The notes beneath the pieces are model-generated. The model worked only from the letters and a program-made list of their open reading frames with translations, ran no database searches and was not told the origin of the DNA. This document shows positions 1,168 through 60,280 of a stretch of 64,000 nucleotides of DNA, one piece after another. The position numbers were made by a program, and so were the translations under genes. Position 1 is the stretch's first letter. Every line of letters begins with the position of its first letter. The DNA comes from a bacterium (lineage in GTDB: Bacteria > Patescibacteriota > Andersenbacteria > UBA10190): NCBI GenBank assembly GCA_030698495.1, contig JAUYKA010000008.1, positions 78,895-142,894 on the forward strand. Direction: 5' to 3'.

Positions 1168-3492
1168 TTAAGGCGTACGCGCCTGGCCCAGAGCTATGAG
1201 ATCGATAGCGATAGCAGCCTGGTCGGAGTTGATAATATTAAAAGTAATAAACCCCTGATTATCTATGGGAGCATCAATGGAATTGATTAGGATAGTGGTA
1301 CTATCTGTCGGCAAAGTCAATGACCGGCCGGTGGGGGTATCAATGGACAGATGAGACGAGGCTGACTGGAGCTCTACCATTAACTCAAGGTTGGTATCTG
1401 AATAGCCGGTGTTTTCTTTGTCCCAAAGCGCTTGGACGTAGTCGCCGATATTGAAACGAAGCGGTATAACGGGCGCTTTTGTGGAACGAAACGTTAAGCC
1501 GTTTGATTTCTGTGGAGCAGATAATCGGGTGGCACGCAAGCTGGCGGGTAGATGTTCGTACGTGTCTTCATCGTCCCCGATATCGTTGGCAATGGTATTG
1601 GAACGCAAGAGCCAGGTTATGTCATCAGGTTTTAGGTTTGATGTAACCGGAGGGAGATTGGGTATGACCGAGTAAAGAACAGTGTCGTGAGCGGCCATAA
1701 CCGGGGTTAGTATGGGGTTGGCGGCGAAAGCGCTGTCGGATGTACCGGTGATACCTGTCAGCCAGTTGATATTTTGTTTGGCAAGAAGAGATTGAATGAC
1801 GGGAGAGCTGCCCAGGGAAAATATTTTTTCCATATCCAATTGGTTCAGATACAGCTGGTAGCGCAAAGAAGATTGCCCGGCTTCTTGCATTTGTCTTTGC
1901 AGGTCGGCAGCAACCCGGCTATACGTTGGGTGTCCAGCTAAAAGCAGCCATGAGGCGGTCCGGCGGTTATAATCATCGGGCAGTATGGCCCCTGGGGTTG
2001 TTTGGCGATGCAGGTAATCAATCAGGCTGGAAATCGCTGGTGTCAGGGTTGAGTTGGTGCGTACCGATAAAGACGGTGTGAATGCCAGGGTCGTTTGCCA
2101 AACGGAAGCGCCAATGATTATGACCGTAGCAACCAGAGCGGTGATGGAGCGCGGCCAATCGCGACGAGAGAAGTTTGACCATAGGCAATACAGGAAAAAA
2201 GCGCCGGTTATACTGAAAAAGAAAGCGGCGTAGAAGAGTGTGCGCACCGGCGGAATGTCGATGAAGAAACGCGGGGCTTGCGAGAGGAAAAGTAATATTA
2301 TGGTACCGGCGGCAAAAGCGATTATCGACAGTTGTTGTTTGGGATGCCGAATAAGAGAAAGCATTACTACCAATCCGGCCAGTCCGGCGCCAAGCCAAAC
2401 AGCGCCCATAATATCGGGGTAATCCGTGATAGCGGGTAGAAGGTTGGCCAGATGCGGGCTAGACGAGAAAAGGTGAGGTATTTTGGACAATAAACCCAGC
2501 CGCCAGCCAACCAGTAAGACAGTGGCGATTACAGTAGAGATAATGGTCCAGAATAGGCGGCCGACACGGTGTTTGATAACGAGATTGATCAAAAGGAGAA
2601 GTGCGGTCGGCAATAAAATAAACGCGCCCAGAAAAAGTGAGAACTGATGACTGACGGCAAGCGCGGCTATTAATAGAAGCGCGAGAATAATATCGGACCA
2701 GCGCCAGCAACGCAAAAGGCGCAGGCCGACGAATAAAAGGCCAAATATAAATACTTCACCAAAAACATTTTGGAAGTGGTAGCCTGGTGTGGCAATGTAG
2801 CGCAGAAAGCGGAAATTAGTCAGCAGCAAAAAGACGGTGGCGGTGGAAACAAAAATAGCCGGCGGGCGGGGAAAAACAGTAATAGCGCACGCAGATGCCA
2901 AGAGAGCGATGGCGAGAGCGACGGCAATTGACGTAAATCCGACGGCGGCTAAGGGCTGGGGCGCAACGCGTATGATTAAAGCCGTGAACGCGTGCAATCC
3001 GGGAGTATAAAAATCAATCGGATCCCGATGTAGCTGCTTAATCGATGAGGAATAATCGGGAAGATGATGATTGATTAGTATCTGTTGCCCCCAATAAATA
3101 GCTTTCTGGCTGTCTCCGGTGGGTAAGCCGGCGTAACGGTAGATAAAAAATAATCCGTAACTGAAATACAGCGCGAGAATAGCAGTGATTAGAAAGATTT
3201 GAAGGTATTTTTTTTGAGTCGGCCAGTGGCCGGTTCGGCGCCAGATTCGAGAAGAATGCCTGAAGACCACATAGAGTAAAATCAAGAATGATAAAATAAA
3301 ATACCAGATAGGGTCGAGGCCGGCAGCGACTGCGCCGAGAGTGCCGAGCACGCCTGCAACCAGGCTCCAAAGTAAAACATAGGCAGTTTTAATAATGATC
3401 AAATCACGATGATATATATGCCAAATTATGATTCCGGGCGAGATAAAAAAGTATATCGGCCATAAGGCGGAGATTAAATAAGTGAAGTCCAT
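1168..3492 (-). CDS. large polytopic membrane protein (about 560 aa TM region + about 200 aa C-terminal extracytoplasmic domain), putative GT-C-type glycosyltransferase
   Basis: 774 aa ORF; >12 hydrophobic helices; architecture resembles ArnT/PMT-like GT-C enzymes; embedded in glycosyltransferase cluster. No diagnostic motif confirmed. Confidence 0.35.
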   Translation of the reverse strand: MDFTYLISALWPIYFFISPGIIIWHIYHRDLIIIKTAYVLLWSLVAGVLGTLGAVAAGLDPIWYFILSFLILLYVVFRHSSRIWRRTGHWPTQKKYLQIFLITAILALYFSYGLFFIYRYAGLPTGDSQKAIYWGQQILINHHLPDYSSSIKQLHRDPIDFYTPGLHAFTALIIRVAPQPLAAVGFTSIAVALAIALLASACAITVFPRPPAIFVSTATVFLLLTNFRFLRYIATPGYHFQNVFGEVFIFGLLFVGLRLLRCWRWSDIILALLLIAALAVSHQFSLFLGAFILLPTALLLLINLVIKHRVGRLFWTIISTVIATVLLVGWRLGLLSKIPHLFSSSPHLANLLPAITDYPDIMGAVWLGAGLAGLVVMLSLIRHPKQQLSIIAFAAGTIILLFLSQAPRFFIDIPPVRTLFYAAFFFSITGAFFLYCLWSNFSRRDWPRSITALVATVIIIGASVWQTTLAFTPSLSVRTNSTLTPAISSLIDYLHRQTTPGAILPDDYNRRTASWLLLAGHPTYSRVAADLQRQMQEAGQSSLRYQLYLNQLDMEKIFSLGSSPVIQSLLAKQNINWLTGITGTSDSAFAANPILTPVMAAHDTVLYSVIPNLPPVTSNLKPDDITWLLRSNTIANDIGDDEDTYEHLPASLRATRLSAPQKSNGLTFRSTKAPVIPLRFNIGDYVQALWDKENTGYSDTNLELMVELQSASSHLSIDTPTGRSLTLPTDSTTILINSIDAPIDNQGFITFNIINSDQAAIAIDLIALGQARTP

Positions 3493-3501
3493 ATACTATG
3501 C

Positions 3502-4665
3502 TTATTCGGATTTTATATATTTGAGATATCGAGAAGCTAACTTGCTCCAAGTATACATCTTGGCGTAATTTCTCATTGTGTCTATTTCCGCAGCTGATAA
3601 GGGGCGGTTAATGAGCTCGATAATTTTAGTTGCATAGGGCGCGGGGGAGGCAGAGGACGCAAAGAAACGTGAGTGCAGTGATGGTGGAATCAGGTATGCT
3701 CTGATGCCGACATTAGCCGTAACAACCGCGCGGCCGCAGGCGATAGCCAGGGCGACGCGATAACTGCTCTTAGCCCGCTGGGTTATGGAATTATCAATGG
3801 GGTCAATTATAATAGATGTTCTGTTGAGGGCATCGGATAATAAAGAGGGATTAAAACGACCCAGCCAAGTTACGCGGTTGCCTAGATTCTTGGAAGAGAA
3901 CGATTTTTTGAGAGCGGAGGTATCTTCGCCGTCACCGGCAATAATCAGATTCGTGTCGGGAAATTTTTCGCAAACAAGTTTTAAAATTTCAGGTAATTTA
4001 TCGATACGATGTCCGGTACTGACGGAAAGGCTGCCCAGGTAAGCTAATGTTTGGTGTTGGGTGGGGGGCGCGAGCGGCGGTAAGGGATTAACGCCGGTTG
4101 GCAAAAAAACCACTTTATCGGCATGTCCGGAGAATTGGCGGTAATGATCGGCTAGAAAGGGCGTCGCGGCAAATATGACACGGCTCATTTTAATGGCTAA
4201 ACGCTGGGAAGCGTGAAGAACGGCGCGTTCGAGGAATGATGATAGTTTGTTGGAGGTCAGCTCAAAATCGTCAGCATCTAGATAGACACGACAGTGTCTC
4301 ATTGACGGCCATAAACGAGCTAAATATGTGCCAAGAGTGTTGGCGGGAAGCGGCTTGCTGATGATAATAACTCCAGGATTAAGGCGGCATATGATGTAGG
4401 CAGTGCGTAAGGAGGAAGCGGCATTATTGAACAGTAATTTCCAGCCGGATAGTCTGGTTTTCCCCGTGGGCAAACGACGAAACGGGACAACGCCGGCATA
4501 ATGGATATGAATTTTATCTGATGTTTTAATTGGCGGACGAGTGTGATCGCGAAGACCAATATAATGAACTTCGTACGGATCAGTGAGATAGTCGGCTAAA
4601 GGAAGGATACGGCCAACGGCAGTTGAGCCGGTTACATCCTGAGCGGCGACAATGACAAGACGCAT
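3502..4665 (-). CDS. glycosyltransferase family 4 (GT-B fold)
   Basis: 387 aa; GT4-type C-terminal motif region (IIAGDGEDTSALKK...). Product class confident, specificity unknown. Confidence 0.6.
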   Translation of the reverse strand: MRLVIVAAQDVTGSTAVGRILPLADYLTDPYEVHYIGLRDHTRPPIKTSDKIHIHYAGVVPFRRLPTGKTRLSGWKLLFNNAASSLRTAYIICRLNPGVIIISKPLPANTLGTYLARLWPSMRHCRVYLDADDFELTSNKLSSFLERAVLHASQRLAIKMSRVIFAATPFLADHYRQFSGHADKVVFLPTGVNPLPPLAPPTQHQTLAYLGSLSVSTGHRIDKLPEILKLVCEKFPDTNLIIAGDGEDTSALKKSFSSKNLGNRVTWLGRFNPSLLSDALNRTSIIIDPIDNSITQRAKSSYRVALAIACGRAVVTANVGIRAYLIPPSLHSRFFASSASPAPYATKIIELINRPLSAAEIDTMRNYAKMYTWSKLASRYLKYIKSE

Positions 4666-10134: not shown

Positions 10135-11574
10135 ATGAAGAAAATTATATTTATTGGATTGGCGGCAGTGATAATGCTGTTGGTGGGGGAAGTGAGGACA
10201 GCCGATGCTGCCGGTCTTAGTGATCGGGTAAATGAAGCTTATAGGAAGATCTATAGCGTTAATCCAACACCAGCGGAAAACATCTATTGGTTGGGGCGTG
10301 TTGTTAAAGGAGAGAAAAAGACGTTTGAGGCTTTAGTTGGGGCCATTGCTTACCAAAGAGCGTTAGGCAATAAGCCGGGTGTGGCGGTGACACTAAAAAC
10401 GGGTGGTAAAGTGAATGGGGTAAAAGATGATAAACAGACAATGACTGTACAGACGCTGCCTCTGTTTGTAAAAATATACGGAAACGATCCAACGAACACA
10501 GAGAAAGCCTGGTGGCGGAAGCGGATTTCCTGTGGTGAGATAACCAGCATGAAGGCACTGGAAAATTCCATGCTTTATCATAAGAGCAAGGGTGCCCGAA
10601 AAGGGTCGGACACAATTTGTGGTCAAAAAGGAAGCAGTGGTTTATCAAGCAGCGGGGTCACAAGCCGACAGGTGGCCGGCGTGTCCACGCACCCGATGGG
10701 TGATCAAGTAAGGATTGGTATTTTTAATACTAACGGGTCCGCGATAAAAGTTACGGCGGATAATAAGTTTCAAATCAGAGAAGGGGCGTCAAAAATTTTG
10801 GCGACGTTGGGAAAAGAGGATGATGTACAAGTGAGTTGGTCGGGCGGCAAGTATCATGTACGCGGCTCGGGAATCGAGCTTGATACGACTAATATAATCA
10901 GGTTGGTTCCGCTGAATCAGGGGATTATGCAAATTAAAAGCTATAATGATAAGTCCACTACGATAGCGGGCAAAAATTATAATCGGTTCCGCGGCATTAT
11001 CGAAATACGCAAATGCGATGGCTGCAATGAACTGTGGGCGATAAATGAATTACGAACGGAATATTACTTGCGTGGTTTGGCGGAGACTTCGGGCGACGGG
11101 CCGGAAGAATACATTAAAGCGCTTGGTGTAGCGGCTAGGACTTACGTTTTGTATCATAAAGTAGTGACAGGGGGAAGAAACACGGCGAAGGGGTATGATA
11201 TCGGTAGAACACCGGATGATCAAATTTATCGCGGTTATGAATATGAAATTATTACGCCGCGCATGGCCAGTATATTTAATCAGGTAAAAGGTATTATCGC
11301 GACTGATGGTGAAGGTGATACGCCGGTATCAACGGTGTATTTTTCTGATTCTGATGGGCGTACGCGCAGCGCAAAGGAAGCTTGGCAAACAAGTCGCTTT
11401 CCTCACTTACAGAAATCCGTTGAAGATCCGTATCATGTCGCTTCGAGTTGTAATGGACACTGCGTGGGTATGAGCGCGCAAGGAGCGTATGGTTTCGCGG
11501 GGAAGGCCGGTTGGACTTGGCAAAAAATCTTAAATTATTATTACAGCGGAATTAAGCTGGTAAAGGCGTACTAG
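10135..11574 (+). CDS. secreted SpoIID/LytB-domain protein (peptidoglycan lytic transglycosylase/amidase enhancer family)
   Basis: 479 aa; signal peptide (MKKIIFIGLAAVIMLLVGEVRTADA); LRTEYYLRGLAETSGDGPEEYIKALGVAARTYVLYH matches SpoIID core; SD-like GGGGAGAG upstream. Confidence 0.65.
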   Translation: MKKIIFIGLAAVIMLLVGEVRTADAAGLSDRVNEAYRKIYSVNPTPAENIYWLGRVVKGEKKTFEALVGAIAYQRALGNKPGVAVTLKTGGKVNGVKDDKQTMTVQTLPLFVKIYGNDPTNTEKAWWRKRISCGEITSMKALENSMLYHKSKGARKGSDTICGQKGSSGLSSSGVTSRQVAGVSTHPMGDQVRIGIFNTNGSAIKVTADNKFQIREGASKILATLGKEDDVQVSWSGGKYHVRGSGIELDTTNIIRLVPLNQGIMQIKSYNDKSTTIAGKNYNRFRGIIEIRKCDGCNELWAINELRTEYYLRGLAETSGDGPEEYIKALGVAARTYVLYHKVVTGGRNTAKGYDIGRTPDDQIYRGYEYEIITPRMASIFNQVKGIIATDGEGDTPVSTVYFSDSDGRTRSAKEAWQTSRFPHLQKSVEDPYHVASSCNGHCVGMSAQGAYGFAGKAGWTWQKILNYYYSGIKLVKAY

Positions 11575-17128: not shown

Positions 17129-17461
17129 TTATTCCAAAATAACGGCCGTGCCAAAGGCCAGAATTTCCGACACGCCTTGACTAACAGCGGATGAAGTGAA
17201 GCGAACACCGACAATAGCATTGGCGCCCATTTGGACGGCTTCGGCGGTCATACGATCAAGTGCTTGTTGGCGAGACTCGCCGATCAGTTTAGTGTATTCA
17301 CTAACTTCTCCCCCGACAACGTTTTTGGCCAGAGCAATAATATCTCGTCCTACGTTGCGGGCGCGGGCGGTGGAGCCTTTAACCAAGCCTAGAGTTTGTT
17401 TAATGTTGCGGCCGGGGACGTCGTCCGTGGTAGTTATAATCATGATTATAGTGTATCGCAA
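17129..17461 (-). CDS. YbjQ/UPF0145 (DUF74) family protein
   Basis: 110 aa; ...GANAIVGVRF... and overall glycine/hydrophobic pattern typical of YbjQ heavy-metal-binding-like domain. Confidence 0.6.
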   Translation of the reverse strand: MRYTIIMIITTTDDVPGRNIKQTLGLVKGSTARARNVGRDIIALAKNVVGGEVSEYTKLIGESRQQALDRMTAEAVQMGANAIVGVRFTSSAVSQGVSEILAFGTAVILE

Positions 17462-17570
17462 AATTGTCTTGTTGACTAGATAATTTATAAAGTTATACGC
17501 TGTTTGGGTGTTGTTTGGGGTTGTTTTTTTGACAATTTACATGTGTTCCCCAGTTCAAGAAGGAGCTGAT

Positions 17571-18479
17571 ATGGGTACAACGGGAGTGAATACAGCAGAT
17601 AACACTGTTGATCAGTTGGTTTTTGAGTCAGGTTCAGTTGGGGACGTGGCCGTCCATAACCTATTAATGGGCGGTCCGGGAGGCATACCTTTGTATCAGG
17701 GCACTCTGCCGTTGACGCTGTATCTGAAGCAGTTGGCGTCGCTATATGCGGGACAGGAAGAATTCAATACTGGCCTGGTGCCGTGTGGGATGAATGTTCG
17801 GGCAACGTATCAACGTTACGGAATGACTGTTTTTCTGGTTGAAGTTGCCCCCAGTACCAGAACGCTCAAGTGGATAAGGGATGATTCCCCTGCGCCGTAC
17901 GGTAATGAAGCAACTTACTGTGATGCTTGTATTTCTTTGCCGTACCAATATTTCTTTGTGACGATTGATAATATGACGATTGATAACTCGCCGAGGCTGA
18001 CTAGCCATAACAGTGTTTACTTTGCTAATCAGCCTATCACCAGTTTGGATGAGCCGTTGGGGGAGTGTCATTTTCACAACTGTTCCGTGAACGCCTATAG
18101 TTTGCATTGTTGGATTTGCACTCAGTGGTTATCCGGAGATATGGGGCTAGGCAAAAACCCTGCACCTATGCAGTTGGTGGCTGCGTTCATTGAGTGGTTC
18201 TACGCTTCTGGCTTCAATCGCAGCTCTGATTTTCACGAAGGAACCAGTTTCTGGAGCCGGAACAGACAGGAGCTGGGCGATAAGCGTTTGGAGAATATTG
18301 CCGCCTGGAAAAGGGCGTCATCTAGAAATCCTGGGTTTGTGCTGCGGGTGAAGTGGCGTCCTAGCTTAACGGCAAGGGAAGTACTTGAGGAGCTGACCAG
18401 AATACCGGACCGCCGCCCGTCGGGATTACTTGATTTGGTTAATATTTACCGCGCAGCGACGTCTAGGCGGGGAGGATAG
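17571..18479 (+). CDS. uncharacterised Cys/His-rich protein; possible UBC-like (E2-like) fold; ends in ...RRGG
   Basis: Start chosen at ATG preceded by AAGGAG (track ORF starts 17508). Segment YFFVTIDN...SHNSVYFAN...ECHFHNCSVNAYSLHCWICTQWLS...PMQLVAAFIEWF resembles the UBC HPN-loop/catalytic-Cys/helix arrangement; first gene of operon with E1-like gene. Confidence 0.3.
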   Translation: MGTTGVNTADNTVDQLVFESGSVGDVAVHNLLMGGPGGIPLYQGTLPLTLYLKQLASLYAGQEEFNTGLVPCGMNVRATYQRYGMTVFLVEVAPSTRTLKWIRDDSPAPYGNEATYCDACISLPYQYFFVTIDNMTIDNSPRLTSHNSVYFANQPITSLDEPLGECHFHNCSVNAYSLHCWICTQWLSGDMGLGKNPAPMQLVAAFIEWFYASGFNRSSDFHEGTSFWSRNRQELGDKRLENIAAWKRASSRNPGFVLRVKWRPSLTAREVLEELTRIPDRRPSGLLDLVNIYRAATSRRGG

Positions 18480-18540
18480 GAACGTTGTTTATTCAGGTTA
18501 GTGGTTGTGTCATCCACTATTAACAGTTGGAGGTAAGCTG

Positions 18541-19353
18541 ATGTTTCAGGAAAGAAACGACGACTGGCTACAGGGGGTGTTGCCGGCGGAAGCGCCGCTC
18601 GTTGGCGTTGGTTTGGGTGGAATTTGCGAAGGTTGGTTGCCTAACGTATTGCTGTACATGCAGGCGGGTGTTTTGCCGCTAAAACGTGTCATCCTTGTTG
18701 ATGGCAAGAAGTTTTCTGCCCATAATCATGGCCGCCAGAACTTTCGGAATGAGGCTAATAAGGCCGAGGAGAGAAAAGTGATGTGGGGCGCTATGTACCC
18801 CACTCTGCCGATATATGCGGTTGGCCAGTTTGTGGATGAGCACAACATTGCGCAGTTTATTCCCGAGGGCACAGTGGTGTTGCTGTCTCCAGACAATCAT
18901 CCGACACGAGCATTGTTCGCCAGGCATGTCAGCACGCTGAATAACGCTCTGTTGATTTGCGGCGGTAACGATGGTATTAATAAGGAAGGAGGGGAGGATG
19001 GTACCCAGGGTTGGGCAGCGATTTACTGCCGAAGGGCAGGAATGAACGTAACTGCACCACTAACGACGTATCATCCGGAAATCGCGGAAGCGTCTGAAAA
19101 AATGCCGTCAGTAATGAGCTGTATGGAATTGGCGCAAGCCGGACAGCCACAGCTGCTGGCAACAAATCTGCACGTTGGACAAATAATGGCATATCTGTTG
19201 CATCGTTATCTGACCATGCCTTTAGGGCAAGCGTTGGAAGTGGTGGAGCAGAGATGCAATATTGCCACAGGGGAAGTCGTTCGGTTTGGTATCCGCGAGC
19301 GTTTCGCGGATACGGTGTTTTGTCTGGGTCACGAGAAAGGAGAACCATCATGA
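18541..19353 (+). CDS. E1-like ThiF/MoeB-family adenylyltransferase (non-canonical, no CxxC zinc motifs, no rhodanese)
   Basis: Start at ATG after GGAGG. GVGLGGICEGWLPNVLLYMQAGVLPLKRVILVDGKKFSAHNHGRQNF matches the E1 nucleotide-binding loop and the D-x8-N-x2-RQ adenylation motif; LSPDNHPTRALFARHVSTLNNALLICGG matches the downstream E1 block. Confidence 0.6.
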   Translation: MFQERNDDWLQGVLPAEAPLVGVGLGGICEGWLPNVLLYMQAGVLPLKRVILVDGKKFSAHNHGRQNFRNEANKAEERKVMWGAMYPTLPIYAVGQFVDEHNIAQFIPEGTVVLLSPDNHPTRALFARHVSTLNNALLICGGNDGINKEGGEDGTQGWAAIYCRRAGMNVTAPLTTYHPEIAEASEKMPSVMSCMELAQAGQPQLLATNLHVGQIMAYLLHRYLTMPLGQALEVVEQRCNIATGEVVRFGIRERFADTVFCLGHEKGEPS

Positions 19354-19688
19354 CCAAGACACTGGCAAGCGGTGCGGTGCTGTTGAGAACGCGGCGCATC
19401 GAACGTGTGCGCCCGGGCGAAGACCACACACTCGTCGTGAAGCACGGCGGATCGAGTGCCTGCCTGCGCTTCAACGAGGCGGTCTCCGTTACGGACCTGG
19501 CCAGCTACTGCACGGGACAGCTCGGCTGGTCAGTGGAGGGCATGGCCTTCGTGGTTGACGGTCAGCGCTACGAAGCGAGCCAGGCAGACGGGATCAGGGT
19601 GGATGCCAGTACCAACAAGGTTGAGTTGGGACATCCGGTGGTGCCGAGCAACCTCGAGTTCGTGCGCAAGGTCGGCGCCAAGGGGTAG
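19350..19688 (+). CDS. small protein (112 aa), GC3-rich foreign codon usage, C-terminal Gly; candidate beta-grasp/ubiquitin-like partner of the E1-like protein
   Basis: ATGA overlap with E1-like gene; about 63% GC versus about 50% surroundings; pattern ...FVVDGQRY...DGIRVDASTNKVELGHPVV loosely ThiS/MoaD-like; ends ...VGAKG. Confidence 0.35.
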   Translation: MTKTLASGAVLLRTRRIERVRPGEDHTLVVKHGGSSACLRFNEAVSVTDLASYCTGQLGWSVEGMAFVVDGQRYEASQADGIRVDASTNKVELGHPVVPSNLEFVRKVGAKG

Positions 19689-19735
19689 TAAGCTCTGCCC
19701 TGCCGTTCTTTACAGGCTTGCAAGGCAAGCAAATT

Positions 19736-19770
19736 AACCGTTGGACACCCGTTCCAACGGTTTTTCTTTT
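19736..19770 (+). terminator. rho-independent terminator of the 17.5-19.7 kb operon
   Basis: AACCGTTGGA-cacccgt-TCCAACGGTT stem-loop followed by TTTTTCTTTT. Confidence 0.7.
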
Positions 19771-22117: not shown

Positions 22118-22366
22118 AATATTTGTTTAGGATAGTAATGTTCTTTCAGAAGCAAATACCGGCCGCCGCAGCTGTTGTGGACGAACAGCGGAGAGAAGCG
22201 GTGTGCGGCTGTGACGCGTAGTTCTCCGACATGGGGCCCTTTTTGGGGCAAGCGCGTCACGGCAACCTCCAGTATTTCGTTGATTGAGTTCCGTTAATTT
22301 TTGTCTGTTTTTCAATTGTGACAGCCAGCTGGCAAACGGGATTCTCAACAATACCGGAGGTTTTTT

Positions 22367-23404: not shown

Positions 23405-23515
23405 GATCTCCCGCGGGTCCTGCCGCGCTCGAGCCCCCGCCCGACGGCTTCCCCCGCCCAAGGGCGGGGTGCAGGCGCTCGGCGGGGGACCCCCCAGCGC
23501 GTCACCCGCGGTGAA
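23405..23515. repeat. GC-rich palindromic intergenic element (family member 1)
   Basis: CCCCGCCC-aag-GGCGGGG hairpin, CCCGCGGG palindrome; shares the CCCCGCC...GGCGGGG / GCCCGCC...GGCGGGC hairpin type with copies at 26.7 kb and 59.3 kb. Confidence 0.5.
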
Positions 23516-24790: not shown

Positions 24791-24966
24791 GTTAAATAAA
24801 ATTATTTGATGGAATGCAAAATGCAAACTGTAAACTGCAAAATGACAATGCAAAATTAAAAAATACTTGAGATGTTAATTTGATCGTAAAACATTATTAA
24901 TTTTAATCTGTTATTTTGCAGTTTGCAGTTTGCATTTTGAATTATTGGGGTTATGCAGGACTACGA

Positions 24967-26568
24967 TTAGTTAATAATCCCTCGCCTCACAATCTCTGGT
25001 ACTCGTCCTTCAATAAGTATCACTGTGTCGGGTTTAATGGTTTTTTTGACCGCTGTCAAAAGCTTTTTGGGAGAGGACATAAATGTAATTGTATTTTGTG
25101 ATTTAGCAGATTGGAATCCTTGTAATAAGTGTTTTTGATATGCTTTGCCGCTGATAAATATATCGGCACCGGATTGACCCAGCGCTTCGCCAAGATGCCG
25201 GTGAACAGCTGGAGCATCTACTCCTAATTCAATCAATGGCGTCATAATAACAATTTTGCTGGTTCCAGCGAATAATTTGAGATGATTGATAGCATTTATG
25301 ACTCCCACTTCGTTGGCAGAGTAGCTATCGTCTACGATTTGAACCGATTGCGATTTAGTAACAAGCTGCATGGTGCGCTCTACAGGGGTAAGTTGGGTCA
25401 GGGCGGAAAATATTTTGTCGGCGGGAACGCCAAGGACATAGGCAGTGGCGATTGCGGCCAGTACATTAGATAGTTGTCCTTGGCTTAAAAGAGAAATTGC
25501 TATCTGGGCACCAGCTGCATCTATATGAATCTGTGCTTGTAATGATGTCGGTAGGACTTTAATTTGATCGGCATAAATTTCGGCCGATCTTTCTTGGGAG
25601 TACCAAATAATCTTTTGGTTGGTTGTCTGGGCCTTGTTGGCGATGATTCTATCGTCGGCGTTGAGAATGGCGGTGCCGTTGGCGGGTAAATTATCAATTA
25701 ATTCCCATTTAGCAGCGGCTAGTTTTTCCTTGGTGCCGAATAATCCCAGGTGCTGGTTGCCGATGGCAGTAACTACGCCTATCTTCGGCTGGAGCAGGCG
25801 GCATAAGGCAGTGATTTCGCCGGCGCGGTAAGCGCCTGTTTCGGCGATATAGGTGCGGGAGTTGTCGTCGAGTCGATGAAGCATATCTTGCGCGACGGAT
25901 AGTTCGGAGTTGCGATGGTTGGCGGTGATAGTGTGATGGATGCCGGCTTGCGTTAAAATTTGATCGAGAAAATGTTTGGTGGATGTTTTACCGTAGCTGC
26001 CGGTTATGGCGATGACATTTAAACTTTTTAGACGGCGTCGCCGGGCGGTGGCTTGACTAATGATTTGACGTTTGCGCCAGTAAGTTAGGGCGTTGGTTAT
26101 CACGACAGATAACGGAGTCAAGAAAATGATGGCGATAATATACGTGCTCCACTGGAGAGCGGGAAGGATGTCAGAGATAAAGAAGAAAAAGTAATACGCC
26201 AAAGACAGGGCGGCCAGGGTTGTTATAAGGAGGAAACTTTTTATGGTGGGTTTGGGGCGATAAATGCCGCGATAGATGATGCGACCAGCGTGGTGGGCGA
26301 CAAGAAAAGCCATTTCGCTCCAGCCGAAGAGGTCGGCGGTGATGAGTTGGCCGGTTAAGGCAAGCAGCCAGCCAATATTGGAAAAAACGACTACACCGAG
26401 TAGTAAGCCGCGGTAGTTAAGCCACCATTCCTGGCTGCGGACGAGAGAAAATAGGCGATCCCAGCGGTATTCTTTGCGCTGCCATAGTTCGGCTTGGGAG
26501 GAGATGCTTAAAACGAGGAGGGGAAAGCCGATGACGGCGGCGATGATGTTTGGGGTGAGGAATGCCAT
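24967..26568 (-). CDS. murF: MurF-like Mur ligase with N-terminal 4-TM membrane domain in place of canonical domain 1
   Basis: 533 aa; residues 1-185 hydrophobic (4 predicted TM); P-loop ITGSYGKTSTKHF at about 190; C-terminal VDDSYSANEVG (MurF DDSYNANP-type) motif. Confidence 0.6.
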   Translation of the reverse strand: MAFLTPNIIAAVIGFPLLVLSISSQAELWQRKEYRWDRLFSLVRSQEWWLNYRGLLLGVVVFSNIGWLLALTGQLITADLFGWSEMAFLVAHHAGRIIYRGIYRPKPTIKSFLLITTLAALSLAYYFFFFISDILPALQWSTYIIAIIFLTPLSVVITNALTYWRKRQIISQATARRRRLKSLNVIAITGSYGKTSTKHFLDQILTQAGIHHTITANHRNSELSVAQDMLHRLDDNSRTYIAETGAYRAGEITALCRLLQPKIGVVTAIGNQHLGLFGTKEKLAAAKWELIDNLPANGTAILNADDRIIANKAQTTNQKIIWYSQERSAEIYADQIKVLPTSLQAQIHIDAAGAQIAISLLSQGQLSNVLAAIATAYVLGVPADKIFSALTQLTPVERTMQLVTKSQSVQIVDDSYSANEVGVINAINHLKLFAGTSKIVIMTPLIELGVDAPAVHRHLGEALGQSGADIFISGKAYQKHLLQGFQSAKSQNTITFMSSPKKLLTAVKKTIKPDTVILIEGRVPEIVRRGIIN

Positions 26569-26650
26569 AAAACTATATTATAACAGATTGGGCCGCAGTG
26601 TAGGGTAAATAATTTTGGTGCTGCTTAGGTTATTTGCTAACTTGTGTTTT

Positions 26651-26850
26651 CTCCGGCGAGTGTCACTTTTCGCGGCACCTACTCCCGGCGACACCAGCCG
26701 TCGCTCACGAGCTATGGCCGGCAAGGCATAGTGCCCGCTCCAGCGGCGGTCGCTACTCGACTAAAAGCCTGTCATCCCCGCCTTTTAGGCGGGGATGACA
26801 GGCTATTAGACGGTCGCCGGGAGCAGGTACCACGAGTGACACTCGCCGCG
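26651..26850. repeat. GC-rich nested palindromic element (family member 2, most complete copy)
   Basis: Nested inverted repeats: CCGGCGAGTGTCAC (26653-26666) / GTGACACTCGCCG (26836-26848); CTCCCGGCGAC / GTCGCCGGGAG; central 16-bp perfect hairpin GCCTGTCATCCCCGCC-tttta-GGCGGGGATGACAGGC. Confidence 0.6.
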
Positions 26851-26971
26851 GGAGCGCCAGTGATGTGGCAATATTTAAAAAAACCAAATACGCTTTTAGA
26901 CTTTCCTGATTTACACTGCTTGAAAGACAGAAGAAAACAATTGTTGCTGATTTTTCGAGATATTAGTTAGC

Positions 26972-27937
26972 TTGCCAACGAGAATGAAGTACACTATTCA
27001 TACAGACATGGATTCAAGACTGACAGTACAAGTTTTAGGATGGAATAGCGCCGGGGATTTGCCGGCGACTTGTGCGGCTTTGGAAAAAATTCCGGCTGAT
27101 GAGGTGATTATCCGTTATATTGATAATGCTTCCAGTGATGATTCGGTTGAAGTAGTGCAGCGATTGTTGCCTAACGCGGAGATTGTTGAGCTGGCGGAAA
27201 ATAAGGGTTTTTCTAGCGGGAATAATGAGGGTTTTATGAGATGTACAACGGATTTGGTTTTGGTTTTGAATCCGGATGTGGTGGTTGATTGGGAGGGCAT
27301 AAAGAAAGTAATGCGAGTGTTTGAAGATAATAAGGTGGCGGCGGCACAGGGGTTGCTATTGCGAGATGAGTCAGTGATTGACTCTGCGGGGATTGTTTTG
27401 TCACTCGCCATGAATGGGGTGGATCGAGGAGCGGGTGAGGTTAATCCGGGACAGTACAATGTTCGGTCGGAAGTTAAGGCGGTTACCGGCGCTTGCGGTT
27501 TATATCGAATGAAATCTTTGCGAGATGTGACGCATAAAGATGGCGAGATTTTTGATAACGATTTTTTTGCTTACAAGGAAGATGTTGATTTGGGCTGGCG
27601 GTTAAATCACGCGGGATGGAAGGTTGTTTATGAGCCGGTGGTTACCGGTGTGCATAAAAGAAAGCTAGGGCGTCAGGGCGCTATGGGGTGGGGAAGTGAC
27701 CCGGCAGAGTTTTACCGACGCTTGAGGTCTAAGCGCACGCGATATTCCTTGCGCAATTGGGTCTGGATGATTGTGAAAAATATTACCTTAAAAGAGGGTT
27801 TAAAACACGAGATTTTTATTGATGCGCGGCTATTATTATTTTTCTGCTTGTCGTTTTTATATCCGCCGCTAGTGACTGTTTGGCTAGAGATTATTTGGGG
27901 ATTAACGAAGATGGCAAAAAAGAGAAAGGCTGGTTAG
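26972..27937 (+). CDS. glycosyltransferase family 2
   Basis: 321 aa; ...RYIDNASSDDS..., LNPD, GT-A pattern; start may be internal Met at 27008. Confidence 0.65.
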   Translation: MPTRMKYTIHTDMDSRLTVQVLGWNSAGDLPATCAALEKIPADEVIIRYIDNASSDDSVEVVQRLLPNAEIVELAENKGFSSGNNEGFMRCTTDLVLVLNPDVVVDWEGIKKVMRVFEDNKVAAAQGLLLRDESVIDSAGIVLSLAMNGVDRGAGEVNPGQYNVRSEVKAVTGACGLYRMKSLRDVTHKDGEIFDNDFFAYKEDVDLGWRLNHAGWKVVYEPVVTGVHKRKLGRQGAMGWGSDPAEFYRRLRSKRTRYSLRNWVWMIVKNITLKEGLKHEIFIDARLLLFFCLSFLYPPLVTVWLEIIWGLTKMAKKRKAG

Positions 27938-28169
27938 TATGAATTTCAATTTTGTATGGTTAAGGTTGAATTTTCAATCTTCAATTTCCAATTTTCATAT
28001 AATAGCCAATGACCAATTACTAAATACACCCTAGAATTGAATGTGATTTACATGGTTGAAAATTGTTAAATTGTAATTTATATGGAAATTGGAAATTGTG
28101 CATTGGAAATTTGTCGCTATTGCGACATATAGTTATATATCCTAGTCTATAGCGTTAAGCGAGTAATTT

Positions 28170-31270: not shown

Positions 31271-31451
31271 CTTAATGACAAAGTTCAAATGTCAAATGAC
31301 AAATTAAATCCAAAAATTTAAACGTCAAAAGATTCGTTTTTTGATATTTGTAATTTGACATTTGGATTTTGAAATTATTTGTATTTAGCTTATGGATGGC
31401 TTGAATGGCATAGTAGGAGCTGGAGTATAATTATTCGGGTATTATATAATT

Positions 31452-34024: not shown

Positions 34025-34229
34025 ATTGAGCTGTGGTTGTAAAGAATATTAACTCTTGATGATTTTTTTGTGTTTATATGAATAGAATAATTTTCAATTA
34101 TTAATTTCCAATTTTCAAACCTTTACGCCACCTGCTAAGAGTTACGCTGTTGTACGTAACATTTGGAAATTGGGTAATTGGGATTTAAATGGAAATTGGA
34201 AATTGATTAATTTGGTATAGAATGTCTTT

Positions 34230-46490: not shown

Positions 46491-46551
46491 CTCCCGTGCC
46501 CAGCCGTCGCTAAAGCTATGGCCGGCACGGCGCGCACTAAGGCTGTTGGCC
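46491..46551. repeat. GC-rich palindromic element (family member 3, short copy)
   Basis: CTCCCGTGCCCAGCCGTCGCTAAAGCTATGGCCGGCACGG aligns to 26682-26726 (CTCCCGGCGACACCAGCCGTCGCTCACGAGCTATGGCCGGCAAGG). Confidence 0.55.
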
Positions 46552-50735: not shown

Positions 50736-50860
50736 GTGTCAGAAAATTTCTAATTTCTAATAACTAATTACTAATAAAATTTTAAATGTTTAACGCCAAA
50801 TTTTAAGCATTGGGCATTTTATTAGACATTAGTAATTAGGATTTAGTAATTACAGCCAAT

Positions 50861-52245: not shown

Positions 52246-52357
52246 CGAGGATGGCTGCCTATTTGGTTTTGACGCCAAATTTCTCATGCTTATTTTTACG
52301 TTAAGGTATTCCGCCGGCACGGCAATGGCGTCAAAACCAAATAGGCAGCCATCCTCG
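52246..52357. repeat. 31-bp perfect inverted repeat flanking a 50-nt spacer (GC-rich palindromic element family member 4)
   Basis: CGAGGATGGCTGCCTATTTGGTTTTGACGCC (52246-52276) is the exact reverse complement of 52327-52357; spacer contains GCCGGCACGGC also present in copy 3. Confidence 0.7.
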
Positions 52358-54721: not shown

Positions 54722-54923
54722 ACAAATATATACGTTTTTTGAGATTTAAAGGTAAAACGTAAAACGAAAAAGGCAAAACAACATCATAAAAACTAAAAAC
54801 ATAACGACAAAAATTCGTTGTTATTTTTTGCTTTTTCTTGTTGTTGTAAGTTTTACGTTTTAAGTTTTACGTTTTTGATTATTCTACTTGCTACGTGCTG
54901 CTAGTGTCAGTTATCATGCCTAG

Positions 54924-59207: not shown

Positions 59208-59264
59208 GGCTTAACTTATACATAGCTTACTGAATTAATCTCCGCCGGGTGAACCCTACTTAGC

Positions 59265-59408
59265 CTTACCACTCCTTCCTTCTGGCGGCACACTTGCCCG
59301 CCCCAGCGGCGGGCTGCGCTCGACTTATGGCCTTGCCACTTTGCCCATAAGGCAAAGACCAGGCTGGCAAGGCCATGAGACGGCCGCCAGAAGGAAGGAG
59401 TGGTAAGG
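59265..59408. repeat. 26-bp perfect inverted repeat enclosing 93 nt with nested palindromes (GC-rich palindromic element family member 5)
   Basis: CCTTACCACTCCTTCCTTCTGGCGGC (59265-59289... checked base by base) is the reverse complement of GCCGCCAGAAGGAAGGAGTGGTAAGG (59383-59408); interior GCCCGCCCCAGCGGCGGGCTGCGCTCGAC is homologous (24/29) to 26746-26774. Confidence 0.7.
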
Positions 59409-59539
59409 CTAGGCGCCTGCGGGCGCCACCCGCCGCGATTGTTGGCATAATATGGGTATAATTTATGTAATTAATTAGCGCGGAGCGACCAGGTGATATA
59501 ATGTAAACGTCATGATTTCTTAAATTTTTGCCTATTTTT

Positions 59540-59593
59540 AATATAAATAAAAAAGACCAGTTACCTATACGCCTTTCGACTTGGTAACTGGTT
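59540..59593 (-). terminator. orphan minus-strand rho-independent terminator
   Basis: 10-bp stem ACCAGTTACC / GGTAACTGGT (59556-59565 / 59583-59592) with 17-nt loop; on minus strand followed by TCTTTTTTATTTAT; no minus-strand CDS upstream of it. Confidence 0.55.
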
Positions 59594-59866
59594 GGGCTCA
59601 AGGTCAAGCTTCTGCGGGCGATTATTCGTCCGGAGAAGTGGTTACTTAAGCCCGGGAGCGTCTGGAAGGCCTGATCTCCCCACCGAGCTGGCCTTTGTGT
59701 GTTAGCACACAACCTCCAGGCTGGGACTTTCCCATCACTCGGCCTGTGTGAATATTTATAGATAAAATACAATTAGTCAAGTATATTGCCTAATAAACAT
59801 GGTGGTTAGTTGGGTGTTATACTTTAGCTACTGGGTTCTAATTTTTTTGACCGATTTTAAAAAGAT

Positions 59867-60280
59867 ATGCGTATAGGAATTATTGGCAGCATGAATTTTA
59901 GCGAGAAGATGATTGAAGTGGCCCGCGATTTAGAAAAACTTGGGCACGAGGTAGTGCTGTCAAATTTTGTTAATGATTTTCCCGGAAAGAGCGATGGGGA
60001 GAAAGAAGACATAAAGCTGCAACAAAAGTTTGAGGAAAATGCGATGCGGCGGGATTGGGAGAAAATGAAGGGCACTGATGCGTTGCTGGTAATTAATTTT
60101 GAGAGACACGGAATAGCCAACTACATTGGCGGCAATACTCTTTTTGAGTTGGCAGCAGGATATTTTGGTAGCAAGAAGATTTTTTTTTACAATCCAATTC
60201 CGGATATTAAGTTTTATAAGACGGAGCTGGAGGCGATAGAGCCTGTTGTTATAAATGGTGATTTGAGTAAGATAGTGTAA
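59867..60280 (+). CDS. nucleoside 2-deoxyribosyltransferase-like small Rossmann protein (tentative)
   Basis: 137 aa; MRIGIIGSM ... ALLVINFERHG...YIGGNTLFELAAGYFGSKKIFF resembles PF05014-type pattern; low certainty. Confidence 0.35.
   Translation: MRIGIIGSMNFSEKMIEVARDLEKLGHEVVLSNFVNDFPGKSDGEKEDIKLQQKFEENAMRRDWEKMKGTDALLVINFERHGIANYIGGNTLFELAAGYFGSKKIFFYNPIPDIKFYKTELEAIEPVVINGDLSKIV

Follow-up and report, generated by a model that had tools for sequence, protein, structure and literature searches.

A nested GC-rich palindromic element between the Mur ligase and GT2 genes of Candidatus Andersenbacteria: a probable composite repeat

The spacer between a murF-like gene and a GT2 gene in this bacterium holds a 204-bp set of nested inverted repeats, element A (26651–26854; all coordinates refer to the + strand of the window, the whole 64-kb stretch of DNA that was analysed). 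We conclude that A is probably a non-coding, composite, selfish palindromic repeat of the REP/BIME or MITE kind. In the best-supported reading, its modules are selfish or neutral DNA that spreads within and between genomes and is prone to nesting. The window is core chromosome with the mur/dcw cluster, ribosomal protein genes, rpoA, secA, secDF, alaS, and mreB, and it contains neither a tRNA (ARAGORN) nor an Rfam family at the gathering threshold.

Architecture and locus of element A

Element A is flanked by the Mur ligase and GT2 genes, in agreement with the preliminary description, and the two genes form a divergent pair. The flanks and the parts of A are as follows.

24967–26568, − strand: Mur ligase (murF-like) gene, flank of A
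26644–26970, + strand: mechanical 108-aa ORF spanning A, from the ORF list, judged spurious
26651–26666, + strand: left end of A, CTCC head and outer 5' arm CTCCGGCGAGTGTCAC (sequence, CTCC-pattern count)
26670–26681, + strand: 5' arm of the linker stem, TCGCGGCACCTA, partner at 26824–26835 (pairing, fold)
26682–26692, + strand: inner 11-bp arm CTCCCGGCGAC, opening the core common to element B (CTTCTGGCGGC in B; A/B alignment)
26695–26729, + strand: module 1, a 35-nt insert relative to B (clean indel in the A/B alignment; metagenome matches)
26733–26749, + strand: module 2, small hairpin GCCCGCTCCAGCGGCGG, counterpart in B at 59296–59314 (A/B comparison)
26751–26761, + strand: conserved junction CGCTACTCGAC, TGCGCTCGAC in B (A/B alignment)
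26761–26809, + strand: central long hairpin with a perfect 16-bp stem, homologue in B at 59324–59379 with compensatory changes
26813–26823, + strand: inner 3' arm GTCGCCGGGAG (pairing)
26824–26854, + strand: linker 3' arm and outer 3' arm, the right end of A (CAGGTACCACGA GTGACACTCGCCGCGGGAG; pairing)
26972–27937, + strand: GT2 gene, flank of A

The outer arms (26654–26667 and 26835–26848) are complementary at 14 of 14 positions and, when extended, reach CTCCGGCGAGTGTCAC (26651–26666) and GTGACACTCGCCGCGGGAG (26836–26854). A 23-nt pair with 87% complementarity (26670–26692 and 26813–26835) encloses the middle pair, which is formed by CTCCCGGCGAC (26682–26692) and GTCGCCGGGAG (26813–26823). The central hairpin consists of GCCTGTCATCCCCGCC (26767–26782), a TTTTA loop, and GGCGGGGATGACAGGC (26788–26803), with 16 perfect base pairs and a stem that can be extended to 26 nt at 92%. 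The base of this long hairpin is formed by the junction 26751–26761 with AGACGG (26808–26813). Between the inner arm and module 2, the hairpin motif of module 1, CCAGCCGTCGCT-loop-AGCTATGGCCGGCA-N-G, occupies ~32 nt (26694–26725). The three nested pairs and the perfect 16-bp hairpin of the preliminary description were all recovered in place. The GC content of A is 0.62–0.66, compared with 0.25–0.36 in most intergenic DNA of the window.

We folded the region 26645–26860 and compared it with 200 dinucleotide shuffles, none of which folded as well in any case. The RNA fold reaches −138.3 kcal/mol on the + strand (z −12.1) and −150 kcal/mol on the − strand (z −13.0), and the DNA fold reaches −77.5 kcal/mol (z −10.9). 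About 200 nt had been expected to fold into a long multi-bulged rod; the strong structure and the long outer rod hold, but the rod leads into a predicted multi-branch junction with 3–4 side hairpins instead of continuing as a simple bulged rod.

In L121, L122, and L123, three relatives that lack A at this locus, the genes are likewise arranged GT2 <- -> Mur ligase -> DegT -> FemAB. The GT2/Mur spacer is 403 nt long in the window versus 40–52 nt, AT-rich, in the relatives; the Mur/DegT spacer is 176 nt with an AT-rich palindrome versus 10–40 nt; and the DegT/FemAB spacer is 108 nt and holds element D, whereas the two genes overlap in the relatives. Covariance models of the element did not match the relatives' loci. 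The short, element-free spacers in three syntenic relatives show that A is an insertion specific to this Candidatus Andersenbacteria lineage and not a conserved regulator of the adjacent genes. A protein of a Candidatus Andersenbacteria MAG (CPR/Patescibacteria) matches the Mur ligase at 100% identity, and the next homologue reaches just 47%. Two independent assemblies of the same organism (L001 and L002) also contain the sequence of A, so that A is not an assembly artefact of the window. The genomes of CPR/Patescibacteria are small and compact, with spacers of 5–50 nt in the relatives that we examined; the hairpin-inflated spacers of the window show that even genomes of this kind can accumulate selfish or structural repeats.

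We also considered that A acts as a functional structured RNA, either a 5' leader or cis-regulator of the murF-like gene on the − strand or a free-standing small RNA, with its stems under selection. The very stable fold, slightly better on the − strand, fits this idea, as do the three mismatches of the linker/23-nt stem, which are C-A or A-C on the + strand and hence all become G-U pairs on the − strand. Transcription from a weak promoter-like site at 26978–26950 on the − strand would run through A toward the murF-like gene, but such a match is at chance level (1 found versus 0.7 expected). The G-U pairs of modules 1 and 2 favour the + strand and those of the outer/linker stem the − strand, and this split over both strands argues against selection on one transcript. 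A TATAAT box lies right before the murF-like ATG, as in the relatives, and by this reading of the sequence A would be upstream of the promoter; from our reading of the −10-like boxes beside the start codons, A seems to lie behind both divergent promoters. A 40-bp near-perfect duplex would be expected to be cut by RNase III and would be atypical of a regulator, which counts against a functional RNA as well. The Rfam search of 26550–26950 returned chance miRNA-type hairpin matches alone (E > 0.01), and copy B is situated in another context, after secA. Together with the absence of A from the three relatives, these observations make a functional RNA quite improbable, and the small regulatory RNA suggested in the preliminary description is not upheld.

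The 108-aa ORF at 26644–26970 is very probably spurious, as had been supposed. Searches against 5.8 billion proteins yielded no homologue and not even its own exact sequence, Pfam gave no match, and the ORF is not called as a gene in L001 or L002, the former of which carries a 49-nt deletion that disrupts the frame. The ORF starts with GTG, with no ribosome-binding site ahead of it in our reading of the sequence; its arginine and proline contents are about twice the gene average; two thirds of it lies within palindromic arms; and the region is missing from the relatives. What speaks for a genuine small protein is the 108-codon open frame itself and a codon-usage score of 0.001, higher than 99% of wrong-frame windows under a null that is lowered by stop penalties and hence generous to the ORF. 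We regard a genuine protein as extremely unlikely; one false ORF call can be removed from the annotation.

Several assemblies of the same organism, from other samples, have deletions or breaks at the elements. L001 (2620–3030) is without 26770–26818, 49 nt of A between GGC repeats, and L124 (3243–3623) is without 59286–59394, the whole 109-nt core of element B between GG repeats. The contig of L125 ends exactly at the junction of the latter deletion, and the contig of L002 ends just ahead of element D. L002 also has T for A26805, which restores a pair in the central hairpin of A. The deletions, flanked by 2–3 nt repeats, could be real hairpin-stimulated events or assembly or sequencing artefacts caused by the hairpins, and the contig breaks at these sites in assemblies of this organism are explained by the hairpin elements.

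Elements B, C, D, and F in the same window

We found 4–5 related elements in the 64-kb window, all of them intergenic and distributed alike over divergent, tandem, and convergent spacers. Those besides A are as follows.

23408–23511, + strand: element D, DegT/FemAB spacer, CTCC-headed GC-rich nested hairpin, GC up to 0.78
46491–46534, + strand: element C, upstream of infA, CTCC head and module 1 with loop AA
52246–52357, + strand: element F, perfect 32-bp arms and a 48-nt loop with the 3' part of module 1
59240–59437, + strand: element B, downstream of secA, CTCC head (A/B alignment)

The core of A (26680–26825) aligns with the core of B (59277–59395) at 74% identity. This common core is roughly 120–145 nt in size and is bounded by related 11-bp arms, CTCCCGGCGAC/GTCGCCGGGAG in A and CTTCTGGCGGC/GCCGCCAGAAG in B. 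The consensus fold of the two cores has 37 pairs, 10 of which are changed on both sides and 0 are broken, which shows that the pairing is kept through compensatory changes between A and B. Such a pattern also favours a functional RNA, of which it would equally be expected, and to that extent it counts against a mobile repeat. The covariance model of the A/B core (R1) matches only A and B in the window, with 175 and 140 bits. A and B differ by a clean indel of 35 nt at module 1 (26695–26729), and this module recurs at 46500 in C and partly at 52313 in F. The place of A in a GC-rich element family of the window, as proposed earlier, is borne out by the homologous A/B core and by these further copies of module 1, and judging from the sequences this family is a mosaic of repeat modules.

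The remaining parts differ from element to element. Neither the outer nor the linker arms of A recur in the window, and the 29-bp perfect arms of B (59261–59289 and 59383–59411), accompanied by a side hairpin at 59412–59427, are entirely unlike the outer arms of A. Element C is closed by CCGTGCC/GGCACGG and consists mostly of module 1. The AT-rich loop of F, which is situated between a PEGA/WD40-like gene and an EPSP-synthase-family (MurA-like) gene, ends in the module 1 fragment GCCGGCACGGC (52313–52323). For element D, the ends and the CGCTCGAG junction are the sole grounds for placing it in the family. At their left ends, A, B, C, and D each have CTCC followed by a GC-rich stem; the pattern CTCC[CG][CG][CGT][CG] occurs at nine sites on the + strand of the window, and five of these are left ends of GC-rich elements.

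A stricter version of the A/B core pattern had 0 matches in IMG/VR and 0 in metagenomes. That only two A/B cores occur in 64 kb, with no match to the core pattern in the metagenome and viral collections, speaks against a mobile repeat, and so do the outer arms unique to A, since the arms of classical MITEs and REPINs are repeated.

Two further structured segments were observed in the window. A GC-rich double hairpin (GCTGTT...AACAGC; GTGACGCG...CGCGTCAC) lies at 22150–22275 in the convergent Wzy-like/FemAB spacer; on the − strand it has a CTCC head, at 22193, and it is uncertain whether it belongs to the family. Past B, an extended −10-like box, TGATATAAT (~59494–59502), is followed by a well-folding segment at 59500–59780 (fold z ~ −4 on the + strand in a sliding window), which has no Rfam match and may be an unannotated RNA or the long leader of the gene at 59867. 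A 168-aa ORF at 59266–59772 on the − strand has no Pfam match and looks spurious.

Module 1 in metagenome contigs

We scanned metagenome contigs for module 1 with the exact pattern CAGCCGTCGCT N2-6 AGCTATGGCCGGCA and found it in 50 unrelated contigs with GC contents of 0.33–0.70, which came from groundwater, soil, peat, and other samples. Module 1 is ~32 nt long and forms an imperfect stem of 12 positions with a variable apical loop (AA, CTGCGG, CGAA, ACA, CTTCG, and others) that often prolongs the stem (GCUC...GAGC). The metagenome copies begin with (C)TCC. At positions left free by the pattern, a C precedes CAGCC in 47 of 47 copies, a T precedes that C in 34 of 47, and a G follows two bases past GGCA in 44 of 47; the covariation counts on this alignment are uninformative, the copies having been picked by an exact pattern. 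Copies from one sample tend to have similar loops and flanks, as expected of lineage-specific, multi-copy subfamilies. Exact conservation of ~25 nt of module 1 across very different GC contents is not what selfish REP-type repeats usually show, and it might point to a conserved function.

Among 52 metagenome copies, 41 are intergenic, and their neighbours are mostly unrelated housekeeping genes. The orientation is inconsistent (7:4 in tandem spacers), and both strands of module 1 fold about equally well. An apparent bias toward the downstream gene (21:9) was rejected as an artefact of counting divergent and convergent spacers. A DDE transposase domain was found in only 3 of 130 scanned neighbour ORFs, counted irrespective of their position relative to module 1, and RAYT is absent among the top 25 Pfam families of these 130 neighbours. 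Direct repeats of at least 7 nt around the copies are in slight excess (17% versus 8% in the control).

Module 1 is in no catalogue that we searched. Rfam gave no match over module 1 in 12 metagenome loci, the module was not found in the plasmid, phage, or IMG/VR collections, and a literature search returned nothing relevant on its sequence or on repeats in CPR genomes. The search of genome contigs with GTCGAGN{4,9}CCGCCGCTGGNGCGG, a pattern too short and GC-rich, gave chance matches in high-GC genomes alone among the matches listed.

Three contigs show particular arrangements. In L127 (~2340–2440, − strand), module 1 and a short tail are situated between 16-nt direct repeats AAAGAAAGAGGCGGTA, and in L162 (~1100–1170), between direct repeats of 10–11 nt, CTGGTTTACT (with the following C). 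Both look like target duplications of variable length or local tandem duplications. In L129, inverted repeats of 123 nt (98% complementary; 3382–3504 and 10311–10433) enclose 6.8 kb, and each begins with module 1 at the outer end, next to which comes a terminator-like hairpin. Immediately upstream (3176–3319) are two tRNA-like repeats of 72 nt in tandem, without an ARAGORN tRNA call.

Read as its reverse complement, module 1 looks like an acceptor strand joined to a D-arm (GCCGGCC-AUAGCUC...GAGCG), and a genuine tRNA-Arg gave an antisense match to model R2 at 13 bits (E = 0.27). A tRNA origin of module 1 was nevertheless set aside: ARAGORN calls no tRNA at the motif, the motif has no regular tRNA neighbourhood, and the resemblance is unproven.

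Proposed mode of spread and comparison with known repeats

By analogy with known systems, we infer that A and its modules are mobile. A is an insertion in what was a short spacer with divergent promoters, between the GT2 and murF-like genes, and is built inward from the A-specific outer arms through the 11-bp inner pair to the core common to B, with the 35-nt module 1 dropped into the core and followed by the small conserved hairpin and the long terminal hairpin. The modules may spread as single-stranded DNA folded into a hairpin and acted on by an enzyme supplied in trans from another locus, possibly an HUH/Y1-type transposase as in the REP/RAYT and IS200/IS605 systems (PMC3116915, PMC3733652), for which the CTCC head would be the likely mark for recognition or cleavage. 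A tendency to land in or beside other hairpins would generate the nested, mosaic look. Any effect on the host would be a by-product of the hairpin or cruciform, such as a block to read-through between the promoters or, at other copies, a stabilised transcript end.

No transposase, RAYT, integrase, or reverse transcriptase is encoded among the ~55 ORFs of the window, no direct repeats indicating a target-site duplication flank A, B, C, or D, and no empty-site allele of the elements was found. The "mobile-element end" of the preliminary description does not hold as the terminus of a larger element, since the 64 kb contain neither cargo nor transposase; a miniature, non-autonomous repeat is the best form of this reading.

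REP/BIME sequences and REPINs are repetitive extragenic palindromes mobilised by RAYT Y1 transposases (PMC3116915, PMC3733652). A REP unit is 20–40 bp with a single stem of ~8–13 bp, a small loop, a high copy number, and an intergenic location, and the REP superfamilies carry a GTAG or CGTC tetranucleotide (variants TGTC and CCTC) at one end of the palindrome (PMC3733652). The elements here resemble REP/BIME in being GC-rich, imperfect, intergenic palindromes with a short unpaired head tetranucleotide at one stem end, and in their lineage-specific subfamilies, in which loop and stem differ and pairing is kept. Like BIMEs, they form mosaics with other motifs and occur in inverted arrangements that give long hairpins and are prone to deletion. 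Module 1 (~32 nt) fits the size of a REP unit, but the whole of A (204 bp, nested) does not. The heads of A–D are CTCC and the CGTC of module 1 is inside the stem instead of at the head, which places A outside the GTAG and CGTC superfamilies. Moreover, A has unique outer arms and no doublet of identical units; only its inner 11-bp arms and core recur, in B, unlike a REPIN, in which two inverted copies of one REP form a doublet that is repeated throughout the genome. The REPIN/RAYT system also has a RAYT gene in the genome with the repeats on its flanks. Whereas REP families are normally species-specific, module 1 is near-exact across very different genomes.

The MITE-type repeats, which include Correia/NEMIS, ERIC, RUP, and the modular BOX elements, share with the elements here a length of 100–200 bp, non-coding sequence, terminal inverted repeats, strong predicted hairpins, and intergenic insertion, and the modular build is that of BOX. 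In contrast to MITEs, no target-site duplication is present, and no insertion sequence was found whose ends would match those of a parent element; of the ends that a MITE family would share, the CTCC head and the inner arms (CTCCCGGCGAC versus CTTCTGGCGGC) are related, but the outer arms are not. Rickettsia palindromic elements and yeast mitochondrial GC clusters are GC-rich palindromes that proliferate in small, AT-rich, reduced genomes, a similar setting; there is no sequence relationship, and the elements here are found between genes only, never inside them. The subterminal hairpins of IS200/IS605 and the PATEs are likewise imperfect hairpins with conserved mismatches and an adjoining short conserved tag, are handled as single-stranded DNA, and produce no target-site duplication. 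However, no TnpA/TnpB lies near the elements here, and no pair of left and right ends surrounds a cargo.

Beyond A itself, we tentatively raise the possibility that module 1, written (C)TCCAGCCGTCGCT-loop-AGCTATGGCCGGCA-N-G, and the CTCC-headed hairpins of the window constitute an uncatalogued, cross-phylum superfamily of tagged palindromes, or else a conserved ssDNA or RNA hairpin bound by a widespread protein. The former would join the GTAG and CGTC REPs as a third type, and in either version composite rods such as A would arise by nested insertion of units, even in a streamlined CPR genome. If module 1 is a transposase substrate, it points to a new mobilisation system whose host range is very broad; as a functional motif, it would imply a partner protein.

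A might instead be mainly a transcription barrier retained by the host, that is, a bidirectional terminator, an insulator, or a stabiliser of 3' ends. UUUUAG follows the central 16-bp hairpin on the − strand, and on both strands in the L002 allele; copies B, C, and D are downstream of genes; and REPs have been reported to influence termination and mRNA stability (PMC3733652). However, a terminator scan of 26450–27100 gave no match, so that the usual signature of an intrinsic terminator, a GC-rich hairpin with a U tract, was not detected in A, and a U tract is likewise missing from the long hairpin of B. The genes on either side of A are divergent and require no terminator between them, and the same junctions in the relatives are without such an element. 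We consider a barrier unlikely as the principal role of A, slightly less so than a functional RNA; it is a possible side effect of a palindromic repeat, not a true alternative origin.

Other structured elements were considered and discarded. The + strand is superficially similar in shape to a retron msr-msd, but the downstream gene is GT2 and the window has no reverse transcriptase. Group II intron domain V, HDV-like and hammerhead ribozymes, attC sites, DGR hairpins, and CRISPR/TIGR arrays each lack their defining partner gene or core motif here.

The window also contains a second class of long inverted repeats, which are AT-rich (24813–24943, 27969–28111, 31273–31377, 34100–34207, 50745–50852, and 54754–54875). 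Their arms are 18–50 nt long, 78–89% complementary, and composed of 7–8 nt near-repeats (TGCAAAA, TTTCCAAT), and the repeats at 27969 and 34100 have TTTCCAATTTTCA in common. This class fills many spacers that are 5–50 nt in the relatives. In addition, a block at 17129–19737 is missing from the relatives' syntenic glycosyltransferase cluster. It comprises a YbjQ-family gene on the − strand and three ORFs without Pfam matches (17508–18479, 18505–19353, and 19456–19737), the last of which is unusually GC-rich (0.63–0.68 at 19344–19686), and the block may be an acquired segment.
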